Source: an uncultured Methanosarcinales archaeon | Lineage (GTDB): Archaea > Nanobdellota > Nanobdellia > Woesearchaeales > UBA10107 | Direction: 5' to 3' | Length of the DNA stretch: 39,069 nt | Assembly (NCBI GenBank): GCA_964572885.1 | Contig: CAZNFC010000001.1 | Location: 1 to 39,069, forward strand | Part shown: piece by piece, positions 4,474 to 27,611 of the stretch | Layout of the letters: each line of letters begins with the position of its first letter | How positions within the stretch are numbered: position 1 is the stretch's first letter | The notes under the pieces: generated by a model | What the model was told of the DNA's origin: nothing | Database searches by the model: none | What the model saw: the letters and a program-made list of their open reading frames with translations, nothing else | Translations under genes and position numbers: made by a program

Positions 4474-5988
4474 TTAAGGAGTCATCAATCCTCTTGCTTT
4501 CTTGAATATGGTGTATATCAATGATGTCAACTTTGCATTTCCTTTGGCCATATCTTTTCTTTTTTCCTCTATCTCTCTTGCTAATTTGATATCTGATTTT
4601 CCTCTTCCGGGAATAAAGCTTTTTGCTGCTCCTTTGAATCCTGAAACGATGTCTCCAATCGGGCCGAATGGCTTTTTGCTTTTATCACTGAACATCTCTT
4701 TCACTTTTTCTCTTGCAGAGTCCATGTTCGGAGAAGCTCCTGTATCGACAAGATTCTTGGCTAATCTGTATCTTTCTTCGTCTTCGCCGAATTTCTCCTC
4801 GTATTCTCCAAGATATTTTCTTAGATCTTCTTCAAGGAAGTCCATCGAGCTTTCTATCGAACTGTCTATGCTTTTCAGAAGTTCGAAATCTTCTGCCATC
4901 CTTACTTTTTTATAATCTGCTACCTCTTTATCTGTCCAGACATATCCTCTGAAAGTCATTTCAGCACGGCCGATATGAGTCGGTCCTCTTTGATAATCCT
5001 GACCGGTATTCATTACTGGTCTTGTCCTGAAATAGAAATGGACTAAAATGCATGATCTTGGATAACCTGGCTTTTCCGCGGGCATCTTAGCCAAGAATTC
5101 AACTTCAACGACTGAACCTTCAAATGCTCCTACGATATCTGCAGACATCTGAGTCTCAGGATCCATCCCTAATCTTTTTATATTTCTAAGATACGGCTTT
5201 ACCCAGTCAACATAAAGTTTTATCGCATTGTAATGCTGCCTTAGATAGCTTATCGTGAATTTTTTCTTTGCTTTAATCTGCTTATCAGTTGCATCTCTCC
5301 ATGCAGTGTATTGCTCTAATTTCCTTACCAAAACTGATTTTACATCTTTATTGAATTCCAATTTATCAACGTATTTTGAAACATTTTCTAATTTGAGTCC
5401 AGCAGGCGCATCAAAGAAAATAATAGGCAGTGTAGCATATCCTACTTGAGAAGCTAATCCATATACTGAACTTGCTTTCAATCCCTGCGGTCCGTTATCG
5501 ACAAAATCAATCCATAAACCTTTCAATGATTTTTCTGCGCCGTCATCAGGTGTTCCTGTCGTTTTTCCTGATGCCAGATCATAAAGTTTCTCTCTCTCAT
5601 CTAATAATTGTATGTCTCTTACTATCTGGAACATCTCTTTTACCATCTTTCCTATTGTTGCCATATATTGCGATGCAATATTCTGCTGTGCACCCAATCT
5701 TTGCTGCGCAGAACCGAAGAATGCACTTTGTTCCGATGCAGTAAATGTATCGACTATCTTTTCCACATCAGCAAATCCAAAGTCAACTAAATAATCCTTG
5801 AACCAGAAATATAATTCTTCAACTGATTGTCCAAAACTTTCATACACCATGTAATGTCTTTTGACAGGCTTAGGATAATGAGTCTCTACTAATTCATCAG
5901 GCTTGAATTTTCCTCTTACTATCTCTATCTTCTCTATATCCTTGAACTTCTTCTTTATTATCTCTTTTACTTTGTCTCTGTCTACCAT
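4474..5988 (-). CDS. conserved-looking hypothetical protein (504 aa), function unknown
   Basis: Long uninterrupted ORF with non-repetitive globular sequence, translationally coupled on both sides. I recognise no family. Confidence 0.75.
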   Translation of the reverse strand: MVDRDKVKEIIKKKFKDIEKIEIVRGKFKPDELVETHYPKPVKRHYMVYESFGQSVEELYFWFKDYLVDFGFADVEKIVDTFTASEQSAFFGSAQQRLGAQQNIASQYMATIGKMVKEMFQIVRDIQLLDEREKLYDLASGKTTGTPDDGAEKSLKGLWIDFVDNGPQGLKASSVYGLASQVGYATLPIIFFDAPAGLKLENVSKYVDKLEFNKDVKSVLVRKLEQYTAWRDATDKQIKAKKKFTISYLRQHYNAIKLYVDWVKPYLRNIKRLGMDPETQMSADIVGAFEGSVVEVEFLAKMPAEKPGYPRSCILVHFYFRTRPVMNTGQDYQRGPTHIGRAEMTFRGYVWTDKEVADYKKVRMAEDFELLKSIDSSIESSMDFLEEDLRKYLGEYEEKFGEDEERYRLAKNLVDTGASPNMDSAREKVKEMFSDKSKKPFGPIGDIVSGFKGAAKSFIPGRGKSDIKLAREIEEKRKDMAKGNAKLTSLIYTIFKKARGLMTP

Positions 5989-16045: not shown

Positions 16046-16129
16046 GCGGGATTGGCAGAGTGGTCAAATGCGCACCGTTAAGGGCGGTGTCGGTTAGTCC
16101 GTACGCAGGTTCGAACCCTGCATCCCGCA
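16046..16129 (+). tRNA. tRNA-Leu (class II, long variable arm); hand-folded anticodon AAG
   Basis: Hand-folded cloverleaf: acceptor GCGGGAT/ATCCCGC, D arm GCA-GAGTGGTCAAA-TGC, anticodon arm CACCG-TTAAGGG-CGGTG, 15-nt variable arm TCGGTTAGTCCGTAC, T arm GCAGG-TTCGAAC-CCTGC, discriminator A. No CCA is encoded. Confidence 0.85.
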
Positions 16130-23089: not shown

Positions 23090-23129
23090 TCAAATACGTT
23101 AATGATACTTTATGAACACGATAGGTGGT

Positions 23130-24247
23130 TTATATGTGTTTCGCATCTATATCTGTGAAATTTTTGATATACCTGTCGAGCTCGATATCTGAAATCTCGC
23201 TTGGAAATGATAGTTCTATTTCTTTGCCTAATCGTTTCCTTAGCTTGTAAGTATTGGCTTGCTTTGCGTATGCCATCCAGCCTTGAAGTCGCTCGTATAT
23301 CTCATCATAATCAATTACTTTGGAATCGTAATCTTGCTTGAACTGTTTTATCCTTCTCTTTGTTTTTCTCAGATTTGTCCTTCTTAGAAGTTTGTGGTAA
23401 TAAAACGATCTAAAGCCCAAGAAATTTATTCCTCGCTCTAATTTGATTATTTTCGATTTATTTGGATGCAGTTCTATAAGAAGATTTTTCCTAATAAACT
23501 CGTTGATTTTATCTTTGTAGTATTCAAGCATATTCTTATCGTTATGCAAAATCACGAAGTCATCGACATATCTTATGTAATATTTTACTTTTAATTCGTG
23601 TTTTACAAAATAGTCTAATTCATTTAGATAGACATTGGCGAAGAATTGGCTCGTTAAGTTGCCAAGGGGCATCCCCCTCTGGGAAGAGCGTGTAGAGAGA
23701 GAGAGAGAGAGCAGTTTGAAAGTATTTTTTTGATTAGCCAAATGATTCTATTGTCCTTAATCTTATTCTTAATTATACTGATAAGAACACCATGGTCAAC
23801 TTCTTCAAAATAGTGCTTTATATCTGCCTTCAATACATAGGTTTCTTTTGTATTATTTCTGCTTGCTTTCCTTTTGAAGTAATCAAATCTATTTAACGCG
23901 TTTAAAGTTCCTTTGCCTATCTGATTGGCAAATGAATCGTAGATGAAGCTTTTGCGAAAAATAGGTTCAATGATGTTACATAGAGCATGGTGAACAACTC
24001 TATCTCTGAAATCAGACTTGCTTATCTTCCTTGTCTTTGGATCCCTTACTATGAAATTAACTAATGGTTTTGGTATATAAGAATGTAGCAACAATTCGGT
24101 TCTTAGTTGTTCAAGATTTTCTTTGAGATTATTTTCAAATTCAATAACATATGGTTTCAATGTTTTTCTTCTTCTTGCTTTCTTGAAAGCGAGCTCTAAA
24201 TTCTCGTAAGAACAAAGATTTTCAAATAAATTTCCGTGTCGCTTCAT
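23130..24247 (-). CDS. DGR reverse transcriptase, interrupted by a frameshift inside a (CT)9 tract
   Basis: Track ORFs 23654..24370 and 23130..23741 together carry all RT motifs. These are FIVRDPKTRKIS and FRDRVVHHAL (motifs 1-2), SFANQIGKGTLNAL (3), GMPLGNLTSQFFANVYLNELD (4, with the DGR-typical LGxxxSQ), YIRYVDDFVIL (5) and the thumb LQGWMAYAKQANTYKLR. The start is placed at ATG 24247 (MKRHGNLFENL...). Removing one CT unit gives a continuous reading frame of about 371 aa. Confidence 0.9.
23695..23712 (-). repeat. (CT)9 dinucleotide microsatellite (AG9 on + strand) at the RT frameshift point
   Basis: agagagagagagagagag read directly. It encodes the SLSLSL stretch seen in both overlapping ORFs. 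Confidence 0.95.
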
Positions 24248-24282
24248 TGATAAGTATAAAGTCTTAGTATTCAAAGCCATTT

Positions 24283-24366
24283 CACGAGAGTGGCCATTGT
24301 TGTTGTCGAAGTTGTTGTTGCCATTGACATGGAACCTACCGTTGTTGTGGTTGAACCTGACAGCCC
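24283..24366 (-). repeat. DGR template repeat (TR), AAC/AAT-rich
   Basis: Coding-strand sequence: GGGCTGTCAGGTTC AAC CAC AAC AAC GGT AGG TTC CAT GTC AAT GGC AAC AAC AAC TTC GAC AAC AAC AAT GGC CAC TCT CGT G. It lies 36 nt upstream of the RT ATG. I count about 26 adenines by hand. Confidence 0.9.
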
Positions 24367-24472
24367 ACACCCTTATAGCCAGTTTATTGTATAATCACTG
24401 CCACTTCACAGTTTCGTTTCCTACTCAGTGTTGTAGCTGCATTTTATAACCAACAATGTGTCATAATACGCA

Positions 24473-24520
24473 ATTTCGGCAGAGCCGAAATGCGCCCATT
24501 TGGACTTTGTCCAAATTGGG
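24473..24520 (-). promoter_or_regulatory. two adjacent stem-loops in the VR-TR spacer (candidate DGR RNA 5' structure or target-gene terminator)
   Basis: ATTTCGGC-aga-GCCGAAAT (24473-24491; 8-bp stem) and CCCATTTGGAC-ttt-GTCCAAATTGGG (24495-24520; 11 bp with a one-base bulge). Both are unusually GC-rich for this window. Confidence 0.5.
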
Positions 24521-24600
24521 AACTGACGTGTGGCCTCGAATTTTCACCAATGAATTGTTTCATCAGCTCAAACCAAGACAAATAAGAAAATGTTAGAATC

Positions 24601-24608
24601 TATTTAAA
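24601..24608 (-). promoter_or_regulatory. TATA-like box (TTTAAATA on minus strand) just downstream of the target-gene stop; candidate promoter of the TR-RT transcript
   Basis: Same box type as the gene promoters in this window. It lies about 235 nt upstream of the TR, and there is no properly spaced box directly upstream of the RT ATG. Confidence 0.4.
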
Positions 24609-24616
24609 AATACTGC

Positions 24617-25354
24617 TTATTTTTTGCGTTTCGCGCCTTCGGCGCTCACAGACGAACGCACCCCACGAGAGAGGCCAAAGTTGCCGAAGTCGAAGTCGTC
24701 GTAGCCATAGACATGGAACCTACCGTTGATGTGGTCGAACCTGACAGCCCTTTCAGGGTATGATTTTCTTGAGCTTTGGTCTGGTGTCCAAAGTGCAATC
24801 TTTTCTGGATTCATTTGAGATAAATGTTCAAGTGTTTCTGCGATTTTCTTATCACTATCTTTTGTATTAAACAATGCTTGCAAATAAGCAACTGTTTCTT
24901 TTGATTTTAATGCTTCTGTTAATCTTGTTCCTTCATATCTTGGAACAACTTTAAGTTCAATTACTGTCGGCTTTACAATAGTGCTTCCGAAATTATGAGT
25001 TATTTTTGCGCCTAAATCATTTGGATTATATGAATTTCTTGTGCTTGTTACTTCCCAATTATCGTTGAAATCTTTTCTTAAGGAGTCAAGGACTTCTTTT
25101 GGAGCTGAAACAGCTCTGTATACATCAGGAGCTGAAATCATTTGTCTTTTTTGCTCATTAAAATATGCAATCCAGTCCTTTTGCGTTAAACGTCTTCCGT
25201 CTAATGCTGGTAAAGAATCTATTGAAACTAATCCATTTGAAGAAACTGGCAATGAATTTAAGTATTGAACAACTGCTTGGGATAAATCTCCCTTTCTAGC
25301 CTTTTGAGCTAATTCGTATGCTTTGTTGCTTACTGGTATTTTGAGTGTTTTCAT
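24617..25354 (-). CDS. DGR variable (target) protein, 245 aa, VR at C-terminus; no obvious signal peptide
   Basis: ATG ORF with an AGGTGG Shine-Dalgarno sequence about 8 nt upstream. The C-terminal ...ERAVRFDHINGRFHVYGYDDFDFGNFGLSRGVRSS corresponds to the TR-encoded AVRFNHNNGRFHVNGNNNFDNNNGHSR. Confidence 0.9.
   Translation of the reverse strand: MKTLKIPVSNKAYELAQKARKGDLSQAVVQYLNSLPVSSNGLVSIDSLPALDGRRLTQKDWIAYFNEQKRQMISAPDVYRAVSAPKEVLDSLRKDFNDNWEVTSTRNSYNPNDLGAKITHNFGSTIVKPTVIELKVVPRYEGTRLTEALKSKETVAYLQALFNTKDSDKKIAETLEHLSQMNPEKIALWTPDQSSRKSYPERAVRFDHINGRFHVYGYDDFDFGNFGLSRGVRSSVSAEGAKRKK
24626..24659 (-). promoter_or_regulatory. GC-rich hairpin just 3' of VR (IMH/cruciform-like target-recognition element candidate)
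   Basis: Coding strand GCGTT cgtctgtga GCGCC gaa GGCGC ga AACGC. The inner 5-bp GC stem with a GAA loop is at 24633-24645 and the outer arms are at 24626-24630 / 24655-24659. It is present next to the VR only, not next to the TR. Confidence 0.55.
24664..24750 (-). repeat. DGR variable repeat (VR)
   Basis: Coding strand GGGCTGTCAGGTTC GAC CAC ATC AAC GGT AGG TTC CAT GTC TAT GGC TAC GAC GAC TTC GAC TTC GGC AAC TTT GGC CTC TCT CGT G. It has 11 substitutions versus the TR, all at TR adenines, plus one extra codon. Confidence 0.9.
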
Positions 25355-25474
25355 TTCATAACCACCTAAACCTGGTAGGTAACACTCATATATAAATCTT
25401 TCGTATTATGACTACTATTTAGTAACAACTAATTAACCACAAAACATATAAACTATAGTATTATAGTCTATAAT

Positions 25475-25615
25475 ATGAAGATGCTCAGGATAGATGACAA
25501 AATCGCTAAGGAGCTGGATGAGCTTAAAGAGTTCTACAGAGTCAATTCATATGATGAAGTCATCAGAATGTTAATCAAGAAAATCAACGGCGAAACAATA
25601 GAAATAATCGTATAA
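25475..25615 (+). CDS. small VapB/RHH-like antitoxin paralogue (46 aa)
   Basis: Hand translation gives MKMLRIDDKIAKELDELKEFYRVNSYDEVIRMLIKKINGETIEIIV. It shares the I.L.(D/E)..(K).L...K.....(Y/F)DE.IR.L pattern with the next ORF and is below the ORF-track cut-off. Confidence 0.55.
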   Translation: MKMLRIDDKIAKELDELKEFYRVNSYDEVIRMLIKKINGETIEIIV

Positions 25616-25619
25616 CAAA

Positions 25620-25820
25620 ATGGCAACAACAATAGCGCTAAAGGAAGAAACGAAAGACATTTTGGAGCATGCAAAAGAAGAGTTAAAAGCAGAAACTTTT
25701 GATGAAGCAATAAGGAAATTAGTCATCAACATGAAAAGGACGAGAATCTCTTTCTTTGGGATAGGGAAAGGAAAGATCAAGGGAGAATTTGTGAGGGAAG
25801 AAATTGACCGTTTTGCTTGA
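25620..25820 (+). CDS. vapB: VapB-type antitoxin
   Basis: MATTIALKEETKDILEHAKEELKAETFDEAIRKLV... is typical of archaeal small antitoxins. It overlaps the PIN toxin gene by 17 nt. Confidence 0.65.
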   Translation: MATTIALKEETKDILEHAKEELKAETFDEAIRKLVINMKRTRISFFGIGKGKIKGEFVREEIDRFA

Positions 25821-26175
25821 TTCTTGGGCTTGGATTGAATATATCAAGGGCTCTAAATTCGGAAACGAAGTTAGGAGATATATAGAGGACGATGAAGAAA
25901 TAATAATCAGTTCAATAAATGTTTCAGAGATATATAGAAAACTTCTTGTAGATATGCCTGATGATGCAGACAAAATTATTACGATGGTATTGAATAGGTC
26001 TTTCTTTGTTTTTTCTGATGTTGAAATATCTCTGAATGCTGCCAAAATAAAGCATGAAAAAAAGATGGGCATGGCTGATGCAATTGTATTGGCGACAGCG
26101 ATGTCACATAAAGCAACAGTTATTACAGGAGATAATGATTTCAGAGGATTGGACAATGTCAAAATCATATCTTAA
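25804..26175 (+). CDS. vapC: PIN-domain ribonuclease toxin VapC
   Basis: VLLDSWAWIEY (first acidic Asp), SINVSEIY, MGMADAIVLATA and VITGDNDF give the four-acidic-residue PIN layout. The start codon is TTG. Confidence 0.85.
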   Translation: MTVLLDSWAWIEYIKGSKFGNEVRRYIEDDEEIIISSINVSEIYRKLLVDMPDDADKIITMVLNRSFFVFSDVEISLNAAKIKHEKKMGMADAIVLATAMSHKATVITGDNDFRGLDNVKIIS

Positions 26176-27019
26176 CATAATTATTTTAATATTCCTTTTT
26201 ATCCCATTAGCATCAGCTTCCTATGCCCCTTCTTCATCATTTCCTAAGGAGACATTATTCTTCGATAGATTAGTCGCAAATAATGAGCAGATTAAATTAA
26301 TCAATAATGAAGAAATTTTATTCACAAGCATCGGAATAACAACGAACCAAGACATAACAAGGGCAAGAATAATAGTCCAGGCGATGCCTGACTGCCCTGA
26401 GAATGCTCCATATCAGAAAAACGTATTGCAGTGCTTCTTTGTAAGCTCTAATTTCAATGAAGACAATATAACAAATTTAGAGATCATATTCAAAGTTCCG
26501 AAAGAATGGATAAAAGCGAATAACTTCGATAAAAACACACTGCAATTAAAAAGATATTCCTATTCATGGAATGAGAATATGCATGGAAAGCTCAGCAACT
26601 GGAAAAGTGAGAAAACATCATTGGAAAATGAAGATGAAAACTATTATTACTACAAAACAATCTCAGATGGGATAGACTATTTCAGCATAGTCGGAATTGA
26701 AAAGCAAAATAAAGCATCATCAAATAAGATAACAACAAATGCAATCATAGGCAACGATGATCAATCAATAGAGATAATAAAATCTGTGCATAACACATCA
26801 AGCAACTATATCTTGATTTTCTTGATCGGTATAGGCTTGATGATAACTGTGACATCAATACCTAAATCAACTCTGCAAAAAAATCAGTCAACATTCCAGA
26901 TACTTTCGACATACATCAAATCTTCAGATATGGAAGAGAAAATGATAAAGCATGAGCTTAAGAAAGCCGGATGGCAAGAATGGCAGATTCAGCTCGCTTT
27001 TAATGAGACTAAGAGATAA
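26156..27019 (+). CDS. secreted PGF-pre-PGF-like domain surface protein with C-terminal TM helix
   Basis: The start is trimmed to ATG 26156 (MSKSYLNIIILIFLFIPLASAS signal peptide). NLEIIFKVPKEWIKANNFDKNTLQLKRYSYSWNE...YYYYKTISDGIDYFSIVG matches the archaeal PGF-pre-PGF pattern (I.F.V.k.Wi....id...i.L.RY...W..l......d...yY.a...gfS.FaI.G). The TM helix is ILIFLIGIGLMITVTSI. Confidence 0.6.
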   Translation: MSKSYLNIIILIFLFIPLASASYAPSSSFPKETLFFDRLVANNEQIKLINNEEILFTSIGITTNQDITRARIIVQAMPDCPENAPYQKNVLQCFFVSSNFNEDNITNLEIIFKVPKEWIKANNFDKNTLQLKRYSYSWNENMHGKLSNWKSEKTSLENEDENYYYYKTISDGIDYFSIVGIEKQNKASSNKITTNAIIGNDDQSIEIIKSVHNTSSNYILIFLIGIGLMITVTSIPKSTLQKNQSTFQILSTYIKSSDMEEKMIKHELKKAGWQEWQIQLAFNETKR

Positions 27020-27090
27020 TATCCACAGTATCCACAGACCACAAGACAACCGCGCGTGAGATATTTAAACCATCAAATTCTTTATTTCTT

Positions 27091-27270
27091 ATGAAAATAA
27101 ATAAAAAGCATTTCATTAAGAAATGGGAAGTATCAATCATAGAATTCAAAGATAGCGAAGGAAAACTCTACAAGGTAACAAGAAGCATCCCTGAATTAAA
27201 AGTATCTGAAACAAAAATATTCAGATCTCTTAACATTGCAAAAAAGAAATTCAATGAATGGCTAAGCTAA
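27091..27270 (+). CDS. hypothetical protein (59 aa)
   Basis: Hand translation gives MKINKKHFIKKWEVSIIEFKDSEGKLYKVTRSIPELKVSETKIFRSLNIAKKKFNEWLS. TATTTAAA lies 22-29 nt upstream. It is just under the ORF-track cut-off. Confidence 0.45.
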   Translation: MKINKKHFIKKWEVSIIEFKDSEGKLYKVTRSIPELKVSETKIFRSLNIAKKKFNEWLS

Positions 27271-27567
27271 TACTTTAATTTTAGACAATAAAGCATCCTT
27301 AAGCTCAGGCTGGCCGTAAGTATAGACATCTGGGATGTCCAGAGAGATTATTCTCTTTTTCAGATACAGATCAGGGAACCTATCGGATAATTCTTTCCTT
27401 TGAAAATCTTCCATGACGACAATCACATCTGCCCACTCGATCTGCTTTTTTGCAACAGGAACATCATTGAACAGCCCTGCCGATTTTGTCTCGAACTTAA
27501 ACCTAAATAGCTCTTCAGCCATCTTGCTTCTGTTCTGGTTTTGGTTGCAGATGAATAATACTTTCAT
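27262..27567 (-). CDS. low-molecular-weight phosphotyrosine phosphatase/ArsC-like protein
   Basis: MKVLFICNQNQNRSKMAE contains the C-x5-R-S P-loop. ATG 27567 is chosen because a TATA-type box (27591-27598) lies 24-31 nt upstream. Confidence 0.75.
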   Translation of the reverse strand: MKVLFICNQNQNRSKMAEELFRFKFETKSAGLFNDVPVAKKQIEWADVIVVMEDFQRKELSDRFPDLYLKKRIISLDIPDVYTYGQPELKDALLSKIKVLA

Positions 27568-27611
27568 AACATTCAATTATCCTTAAAAGGCTATAAATCT
27601 TTGCCGTAACC

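Follow-up and report, generated by a model that had tools for sequence, protein, structure and literature searches.

Bacterial contingency loci, such as those governed by poly-G tracts in Campylobacter and Neisseria and by tetranucleotide tracts in Haemophilus, carry a pure repeat within an open reading frame (ORF) whose length toggles the frame; repeat length at these loci differs between otherwise identical alleles, the repeats are over-represented at the locus, and most of the alleles sampled are OFF (PMC11868660, PMC3315296). According to a 2025 review of phase variation, the distribution of contingency loci in archaea is still to be explored (PMC11868660). Diversity-generating retroelements (DGRs), in which a reverse transcriptase (RT) serves adenine-directed mutagenic retrohoming from a template region (TR) to the variable region (VR) of a target gene, have been described in Nanoarchaeota, Woesearchaeota, and Pacearchaeota (Paul et al. 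2015, PMC4372165; Wu et al. 2018, PMC5758913; Roux et al. 2021, PMC8144416). Here, we examined contig CAZNFC010000001.1 of assembly GCA_964572885.1 (39,069 nt; this whole stretch of DNA is termed the window), which derives from a DPANN archaeon and holds a DGR whose RT gene is split at a (CT)9 microsatellite. As far as the accessible parts of the three reports describe their elements, the DGR of the window has in common with them (i) the GNLTSQ motif 4 and the restriction of TR/VR mismatches to adenines; and (ii) a VR at the 3′ end of an orphan target gene, with no Avd-like ORF apparent beside the cassette. With the bacterial contingency loci, the repeat-bearing RT genes share all of the properties listed above, and they differ from those loci in that the host is a DPANN archaeon, the gene that would be gated is the RT of a hypermutation device and not a surface structure or restriction-modification enzyme, and the repeat is located mid-gene in a loop of the catalytic core and not near the 5′ end. 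We consider it probable that this repeat is a slipped-strand contingency switch that gates DGR mutagenesis.

Repeat-based control of mutability has a precedent in the 6-bp repeat in mutL of Salmonella and E. coli, which is a switch of general mutability. The mutL repeat is likewise a slippage-prone element that reversibly inactivates a mutation-rate gene and gives subpopulations of differing evolvability; however, mutation is genome-wide in that case and occurs through disabled repair, whereas a DGR switch would gate a targeted mutator of a ~90-nt VR in one gene. Two overlapping ORFs that must be fused to give the active enzyme, with a slippery tract at the overlap, are also found in the IS1/IS3 transposases and in dnaX frameshifting. 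Unlike these systems, the RT tract shows neither a fixed direction of shift nor a conserved heptamer nor a stimulatory structure of any significance, and its length varies in the DNA. The best-supported reading of the data presented here is that, in archaea, slipped-strand phase variation acts on the engine of a targeted hypermutator, which would be new: the accessible parts of the texts of PMC4372165, PMC5758913, PMC8144416, and PMC10053308 contain no mention of an RT repeat, RT frameshift, or phase variation, and no literature linking a DGR RT to simple repeats, frameshifts, slippage, or phase variation was found in a search that did not cover Paul et al. 2017.

The RT gene of the window is located on the minus strand and is composed of the following parts:

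23654..24247, minus strand: N-terminal part of the RT (fingers, motif 1-3 region), which crosses the repeat into an out-of-frame tail and ends at TAA 23656-23654
23694..23711, minus strand: (CT)9 microsatellite and frame-switch point; the RT is intact with (CT)8 or (CT)11
23673..23693, minus strand: post-tract flank (ACACGCTCTTCCCAGAGG + GGG), of which the first 20 nt are the same in the related L015/L029 lineage
23130..23693, minus strand: C-terminal part of the RT (motif 4 GMPLGNLTSQ, YVDD, thumb), in the +2/-1 frame, with the stop codon ending at 23130

The repeat is a perfect (AG)9 on the plus strand, in the context ...GTGT(AG)9CAG..., and (CT)9 on the coding strand. A first-pass annotation of the sequence had reported the RT gene to be split at this repeat, and the two overlapping ORFs do read as it described, the span it gave for the tract (23695-23712) being off by one base. 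This run is the longest dinucleotide repeat in the window (36% G+C), where the runner-up has 5 units, and the base composition predicts about 1e-6 occurrences of one specific 18-nt AG run in window-sized DNA. A composite pattern that joins the motif-4 codons, the repeat, and the WLI..N codons was matched once in the window and in 0 of 100 shuffles. The N-terminal ORF (23654..24370, minus strand) terminates in ...KKILSNCSLSLSLHALPRGGCPLAT*, and the C-terminal ORF (23130..23741, minus strand), which contains ...LLSLSLSTRSSQRGMPLGNLTSQ..., is in the +2 (equivalently -1) frame relative to it; therefore, the two ORFs are fused by (CT)8 or (CT)11 and are out of frame with (CT)9 or (CT)10. The frame arithmetic thus bears out the earlier proposal that a continuous RT of 371 aa results when one CT unit is removed or two are added. 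This length is counted from MKRHGN (ATG at 24247), the likely start in that homologues mostly begin at the MK..NLW position, while a start at MALNTK (ATG at 24280) would give 382 aa. The joined protein reads ...SNCSLSLSTRSSQR... across the junction, and the out-of-frame tail reads HALPRGGCPLAT.

Comparison of the joined RT with known proteins placed the repeat at a defined site of the enzyme. The Pfam RVT_1 domain was matched over residues 81-290 (7.7e-23), with the match crossing the junction, and the best solved structure was the Bordetella DGR RT (8ub7; E 2.5e-46), in which IGSLTSQ is aligned to LGNLTSQ of the window. The tract is located between the motif-3 region (LKADIKHYF) and motif 4 (GMPLGNLTSQ), where the first-pass annotation had put it, and the residues that it encodes form a 9-aa insertion relative to the Bordetella RT, directly before motif 4. 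In an AlphaFold model of the joined RT, the mean predicted local distance difference test score (pLDDT) was 73 and the repeat-encoded residues 193-197 were below 50, which is consistent with a flexible loop. Gene calling yields the C-terminal part as a protein of its own (P0122, 180 aa). The invariant Met of GMPLGN is encoded by the ATG at 23672-23670 (minus strand), preceded in the window by GAGGGGG.

The RT has thousands of homologues. The closest of the matches listed show 60-68% identity and, where named, are annotated as Nanoarchaeota or Woesearchaeota; the full-length matches listed are single ORFs, mostly of 350-420 aa. The loop between WLIKKILxN and GMPLGNLTSQ is usually 6-8 aa and spans 6-24 aa across intact homologues. 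One of these, P0016, has the loop PIEREREREREGN, which is encoded by (GA)13. A DNA pattern in which the motif-4 codons are followed by an AG/CT/AT/CG-type dinucleotide repeated at least 7 times and then by the WLI..N codons was checked on the window and the P0016 locus and used to scan metagenomes and species genomes; as both scans targeted the repeat pattern, the counts cover repeat-bearing RTs. The metagenome scan retrieved 25 loci, including 23 true RTs of the clade, and the species-genome scan retrieved 10 loci, including 9 true RTs (8 of the 9 titled Woesearchaeota, Pacearchaeota, or Nanoarchaeota). The 32 true RT loci were deduplicated to 30 distinct alleles in 26 lineages, window included. 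An uninterrupted (GA)n or (CT)n of 5-20 units was present in the loop of all 30 alleles, of which 5 were in frame, 12 were off by one base, and 13 were off by two. Three pattern matches (L010, L025, and L036) were discarded as GC-rich non-RT sequences, and scans of viral contigs with the dinucleotide and poly-G versions of the pattern gave 0 matches.

A search with the C-terminal fragment extended the set of repeat types. The matches listed were almost only fragments of 155-310 aa; 72 of 119 (P0127-P0245, window's own excluded) start exactly at the Met of GMPLGN, and ~15 further listed fragments begin just before a GGG. When six further split RTs were sampled, all six were found to break at a repeat (four at G9, one at (CT)10, and one at (AC)22):

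L041 1981-1989: G9, out of frame
L049 2006-2014: G9, out of frame
L056 1976-1984: G9, out of frame
L066 1475-1483: G9, out of frame
L064 1451-1470: (CT)10
L068 1437-1480: (AC)22

In intact homologues with 'GGGG' loops, the loop is encoded by G12, which is in frame (L039 1052-1063; L040 1127-1138). Across the 317 kb of DPANN DNA that was fetched, 58 of 59 simple repeats (dinucleotides of at least 6 units or G/C of at least 8) fall in the RT loop, such that a pure repeat whose length sets the frame of its own ORF is over-represented at this locus beyond chance. The comparison of orthologues for presence and length of the tract, which the first-pass annotation had named as a check, therefore reveals four repeat motifs recurring in one loop across many lineages of DPANN DGR RTs. 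In a neighbour-joining tree, a deep all-(GA)n clade, three separate GA lineages, a CT lineage, and scattered poly-G lineages were interspersed with repeat-free RTs; this distance tree suggests that repeats at the loop may have arisen several times independently. The nearest repeat-bearing relative of the window is the L015/L029 lineage, which is about 66-71% identical in the RT region. As a separate observation, window positions 23673-23735 and L015 (coding orientation, ~5590-5680) have almost the same sequence leading up to the tract and in the 20 nt that follow it, the loop being otherwise hypervariable; this near-identity could reflect a shared functional element, a two-frame constraint, or an exchange of repeat blocks.

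Changes in tract length were observed directly between otherwise identical alleles. Four pairs of alleles have RT genes that are 100% identical (~1 kb around the tract), with tract length as the sole difference in the RT. L007 and L018 carry (GA)20 and (GA)17, respectively, and align over 9,446 bp with 0 mismatches and a single 6-nt gap, which is in the tract. L015, with (CT)13, is in frame and L029, with (CT)9, is out of frame; these align over 4.2 kb with 4 mismatches, all outside the RT, and an 8-nt gap. Similarly, L027 is in frame with (AG)12 and L004 is out of frame with (AG)8. The remaining pair, L022 with (AG)9 and L038 with (AG)11, is out of frame in two different frames, and the predicted ON length of 10 units lies between them. 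Polymorphism between ON and OFF lengths among near-identical genomes is thus seen in sister lineages of the window, where two of the four pairs join an in-frame to an out-of-frame allele. Judged from these alignments, the tract is the hypermutable, fast-changing site of the sister-lineage RT genes. Aside from the tract, L022 and L038 differ by 4 single-nucleotide polymorphisms (SNPs) in 2,965 bp, 3 of which are inside the 96-bp VR (L022 2123-2218 / L038 1394-1489). A homopolymer difference (T5/T4) was also noted near the 3′ end of the RT between L021 (~2365-2375) and the otherwise near-identical alleles L023 and L037; it alters the last part of the protein, leaving 151 vs 140 aa open after motif 4.

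Under the proposed switch, slipped-strand mispairing during DNA replication would add or remove CT units in the insertion-tolerant loop before motif 4. With 8, 11, 14... units, the RT would be intact and its loop would read (SL)n, and adenine-directed mutagenic retrohoming of the target gene would proceed (ON); at other lengths, (CT)9 included, motifs 1-3 would be parted from motifs 4-7 and no single polypeptide would contain the whole catalytic core (OFF). The harmless loop in other lineages would be (ER)n, (TH)n, or Gly-rich, with one length in three intact. A population would then consist of a mostly OFF majority and a reversible ON minority, as a stochastic switch set atop a targeted hypermutator. 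The (CT)9 allele of the window would accordingly be expected to make no active RT, switching is presumably frequent and reversible in the window organism, and the repeat is likely kept by selection for switchability. The shift needed to restore the frame has no preferred direction (12 alleles one way and 13 the other), a balance more easily reconciled with tract length following a random walk than with a programmed frameshift of a fixed kind. The ON/OFF switch put forward by the first-pass annotation is in this manner supported by the orthologues, through the recurrent repeats at the loop, the four length-variant pairs, and the intact halves of the gene described below. The same annotation had listed artefact, decay, and slippage in transcription or translation as alternatives.

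Alternatively, the repeat may be neutral in a tolerant loop and accompanied by gene decay, with the out-of-frame alleles representing dead or dying DGRs and no adaptive switching. The loop length of 6-24 aa among intact homologues, the close agreement of 5 of 30 in-frame alleles with a neutral one-third, and the location of the window DGR in a variable island missing from two relatives are all compatible with decay. Second lesions were found in L009 (an extra TGA) and L014 (an upstream frameshift), but both are contigs of 2-4x coverage, and, in the sequence available, a second lesion is absent from 23 of the 25 out-of-frame alleles. Every allele is rejoined by a one-unit change without a stop codon, and both halves are open to approximately full length wherever the contig permits, although an open frame of 150 codons is expected by chance at only ~2e-5 at the base composition of the window. 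Between pairs of out-of-frame lineages, the ratio of nonsynonymous to synonymous substitution (dN/dS) was 0.05-0.22, in the half downstream of the frameshift as in the N-terminal half, with synonymous sites saturated in some pairs. The RT-16 RNA and TR of the cassette (see below) are likewise conserved in out-of-frame loci. Low dN/dS in both halves together with open halves argues that these genes are not pseudogenes, and low dN/dS with retention of RT-16 argues that the RT was functional for most of the history connecting the alleles that are now out of frame. Further disabling mutations in relatives, which the first-pass annotation had regarded as the sign of plain pseudogenization, are therefore not the pattern found. 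The persistence of pure tracts across a deep clade, the presence of four different motifs at one loop, and the near absence of such repeats elsewhere in the fetched DPANN DNA are also at odds with decay, which we regard as improbable. A mis-sized consensus is more doubtful still: the true window allele would be (CT)8 or (CT)11, altered by stutter in the polymerase chain reaction (PCR), by sequencing, or by assembly. Dinucleotide tracts do stutter in amplified libraries, and the repaired products are missing from the protein collection, though so is any close relative; however, every k-mer in usual use for assembly exceeds the 18 nt of the tract, the same out-of-frame length was obtained from independent assemblies ((GA)9 in L021, L023, and L037; G9 at 23 of 23 loci of three lineages), and in the 26 lineages, which come from many projects, a tract is normally out of frame. 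We attach a similarly slight probability to a two-piece enzyme, in which the N- and C-fragments are both translated, the latter from the GMPLGN Met, and assemble into an active split RT. This Met is invariant across 28 aligned sequences, it is the called start of the 72 C-terminal fragments noted above, and a Shine-Dalgarno-like GAGG is present 3 nt upstream of the window ATG. Yet the Met is equally invariant in many repeat-free, single-ORF RTs and is therefore not specific to split genes, the purine run is missing from GA-type flanks, and in-frame single-chain alleles occur beside split ones within single lineages; moreover, we know of no split DGR RT.

Certain findings count against a contingency switch in general and against its extension to the window in particular. 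The best full-length homologue of the window RT is 68% identical, no relative exceeds about 70%, and both RT fragments of the window are singletons at 90% clustering; in the window lineage, switching is thus extrapolated from sister lineages, as the window RT has no close relative. The products of (CT)8 and (CT)11 were absent from the protein collection by exact look-up, as were the G8/G11 products of three poly-G lineages, an approach that is a weak test because any SNP or other start codon defeats the match. Some of the allele pairs may derive from related samples or from the same reads assembled twice, the size of tracts that exceed the assembler k-mer, (GA)17-20 or (AC)22 for example, can be misjudged, and of the three positions at which the VRs of L022 and L038 differ, only 1 corresponds to a TR adenine. 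The in-frame share of dinucleotide alleles (5 of 30) is low relative to one-third (binomial p = 0.035). Nine units is the commonest tract length (12 of 30 alleles), and not one of these 12 is in frame (chance ~0.008 under a two-thirds expectation). The three G9 lineages examined had the same out-of-frame length at 23 of 23 retrieved loci (from 27 contigs carrying fragments), and no in-frame allele was found for them by exact look-up or by homology search, in which a repaired G9-lineage RT as query gave no near-identical full-length allele (best 67%). Both at 9 units and at the G9 of all four out-of-frame poly-G lineages, the resting length happens to be OFF. As a switch should yield some samples with an ON majority, uniform G9 suits constitutive slippage rescue at least as well.

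Such rescue is the core of a recoding model, the main rival of the switch, in which the RT is made from out-of-frame DNA through slippage on the repeat and the length variation in DNA is incidental. The route could be (i) stutter of RNA polymerase by plus or minus one unit; or (ii) ribosomal re-pairing by 2 nt on (CU)n/(GA)n and by 1 nt on G9; and the repeat would then be a permanent attenuator that holds RT levels very low. Out-of-frame alleles are the rule (25 of 30 with dinucleotide tracts, the nine-unit class entirely), and the four sampled out-of-frame poly-G lineages are uniformly G9, with the two that were measured by loop length needing the same one-base shift and no in-frame counterpart found for the three that were tested. 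Constant translation would also directly explain the purifying selection on both halves of lineages that are currently out of frame, and, from the sequence of the repeat, a tRNA on a dinucleotide tract could re-pair perfectly after a 2-nt shift and so rescue either out-of-frame class. Against recoding, in-frame alleles exist at the level of the clade, within L015/L029 and L027/L004, and as G12. Both shift directions are needed equally (12 vs 13), and no slippery heptamer or stimulator is conserved across the GA, CT, AC, and G types, such that the fixed direction and conserved slippery motif of programmed frameshifting are lacking. The sole candidate hairpin, in which (CU)n is paired with AGAGGGGG, was not better than shuffled sequence: the minimum-energy fold at the tract is a 9-bp (CU)n:AGAGGGGGA hairpin, for which z = -1.06 and which is equalled by 30 of 200 shuffles. 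As it is not significant, the hairpin was dropped as evidence for programmed frameshifting. To our knowledge, transcriptional slippage is established for A/T homopolymers and not for dinucleotide repeats. Taken together, recoding as the sole explanation appears unlikely, while slippage rescue and a DNA switch may coexist. For the clade as a whole, we lean on balance toward the view that DPANN DGRs have repeatedly evolved poly-G, (GA)n, (CT)n, and (AC)n in one RT loop as reversible, heritable ON/OFF switches; they would be the first contingency locus known to govern an engine of mutagenesis, and Archaea would gain their first well-supported case of phase variation by simple repeats.

What holds DGRs in check is not settled. 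If it ran unrestrained, mutagenic retrohoming would go on replacing the sequence of a variable protein that is already functional. If the contingency switch is true, it would provide an answer at the population level, with most cells keeping the tuned variable protein while a small minority diversifies, and VR diversity should be predictable, sample by sample, from the in-frame fraction at the tract. Contingency loci would furthermore extend to Archaea and to the control of evolvability itself. In practical terms, gene callers split the repeat-bearing RTs into two 'hypothetical' ORFs, and DGR surveys that need an intact RT ORF probably undercount, discard, or score as inactive many DPANN DGRs.

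The window holds a complete DGR of a DPANN archaeon, in which the target gene with its VR, the RT-16 RNA, the TR, and the RT are all on the minus strand. In addition to the RT, the cassette includes:

24617..25354, minus strand: DGR target gene of 245 aa, with the VR in its C-terminal part and no Pfam match at E<=0.1
24657..24750, minus strand: variable region (VR), a direct repeat of the TR
24370..24578, minus strand: RT-16 RNA (Rfam RF03019), a full-length model match at 62 bits vs a gathering score of 50
24276..24366, minus strand: template region (TR), rich in AAC codons, forming the repeat pair with the VR

In an alignment register with a 3-nt gap, the homologous stretch of TR and VR has 14 mismatches, each of them at an adenine of the TR (8 A>G and 6 A>T), from which it follows that the element has at some time performed adenine mutagenesis. 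Within a run of AAC AAC AAC, the TR is short of the VR by one codon (TR 24300-24315 vs VR 24681-24699), an indel of 3-nt slippage type. The RT belongs to the DGR clade with an [LIV]GxxxSQ motif 4, the TR/VR pair is of the adenine type, and the VR is at the 3′ end of the target gene; an intact RT is lacking in the (CT)9 allele and is regained after a one-unit change. The split RT is thus no ground for excluding the cassette from the DGR family. No Avd-like ORF was noticed in the ORF list for 23100-25400, in which no dedicated search for Avd was made. RT-16 was found upstream of the RT in 16 of 18 related loci (L001, L004, L005, L007, L015, L016, L018, L020-L022, L032, L038, L039, L041, L049, and L056), out-of-frame alleles included, and looks like the structured part of the DGR RNA in the RT clade of the window. 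This structured RNA is upstream of the TR in the window DGR, whereas it is downstream in the Bordetella element; in the window it adjoins the 5′ end of the TR on the same strand.

The DGR shares a ~4.5-kb island (~23100-27600) with a VapB-like/PIN (VapC) pair (25475-26175) and with an ORF (26054-27019) that has no Pfam match. An Lhr helicase gene flanks the island on one side and ribosomal-protein genes on the other. Two relatives of ~80% nucleotide identity that were found through Lhr synteny, L002 and L003, have no DGR at the corresponding site and are therefore uninformative on the tract. At this site, L003 has a single 208-aa ORF instead, and L002 has a different 383-aa gene along with a 75-nt, 95%-identical copy of the 5′ end of Lhr (L002 928-1002); the differing contents suggest that the site may be an insertion hot spot. 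The sole tRNA of the window, tRNA-Leu(AAG), is encoded at 16046-16129 on the plus strand.

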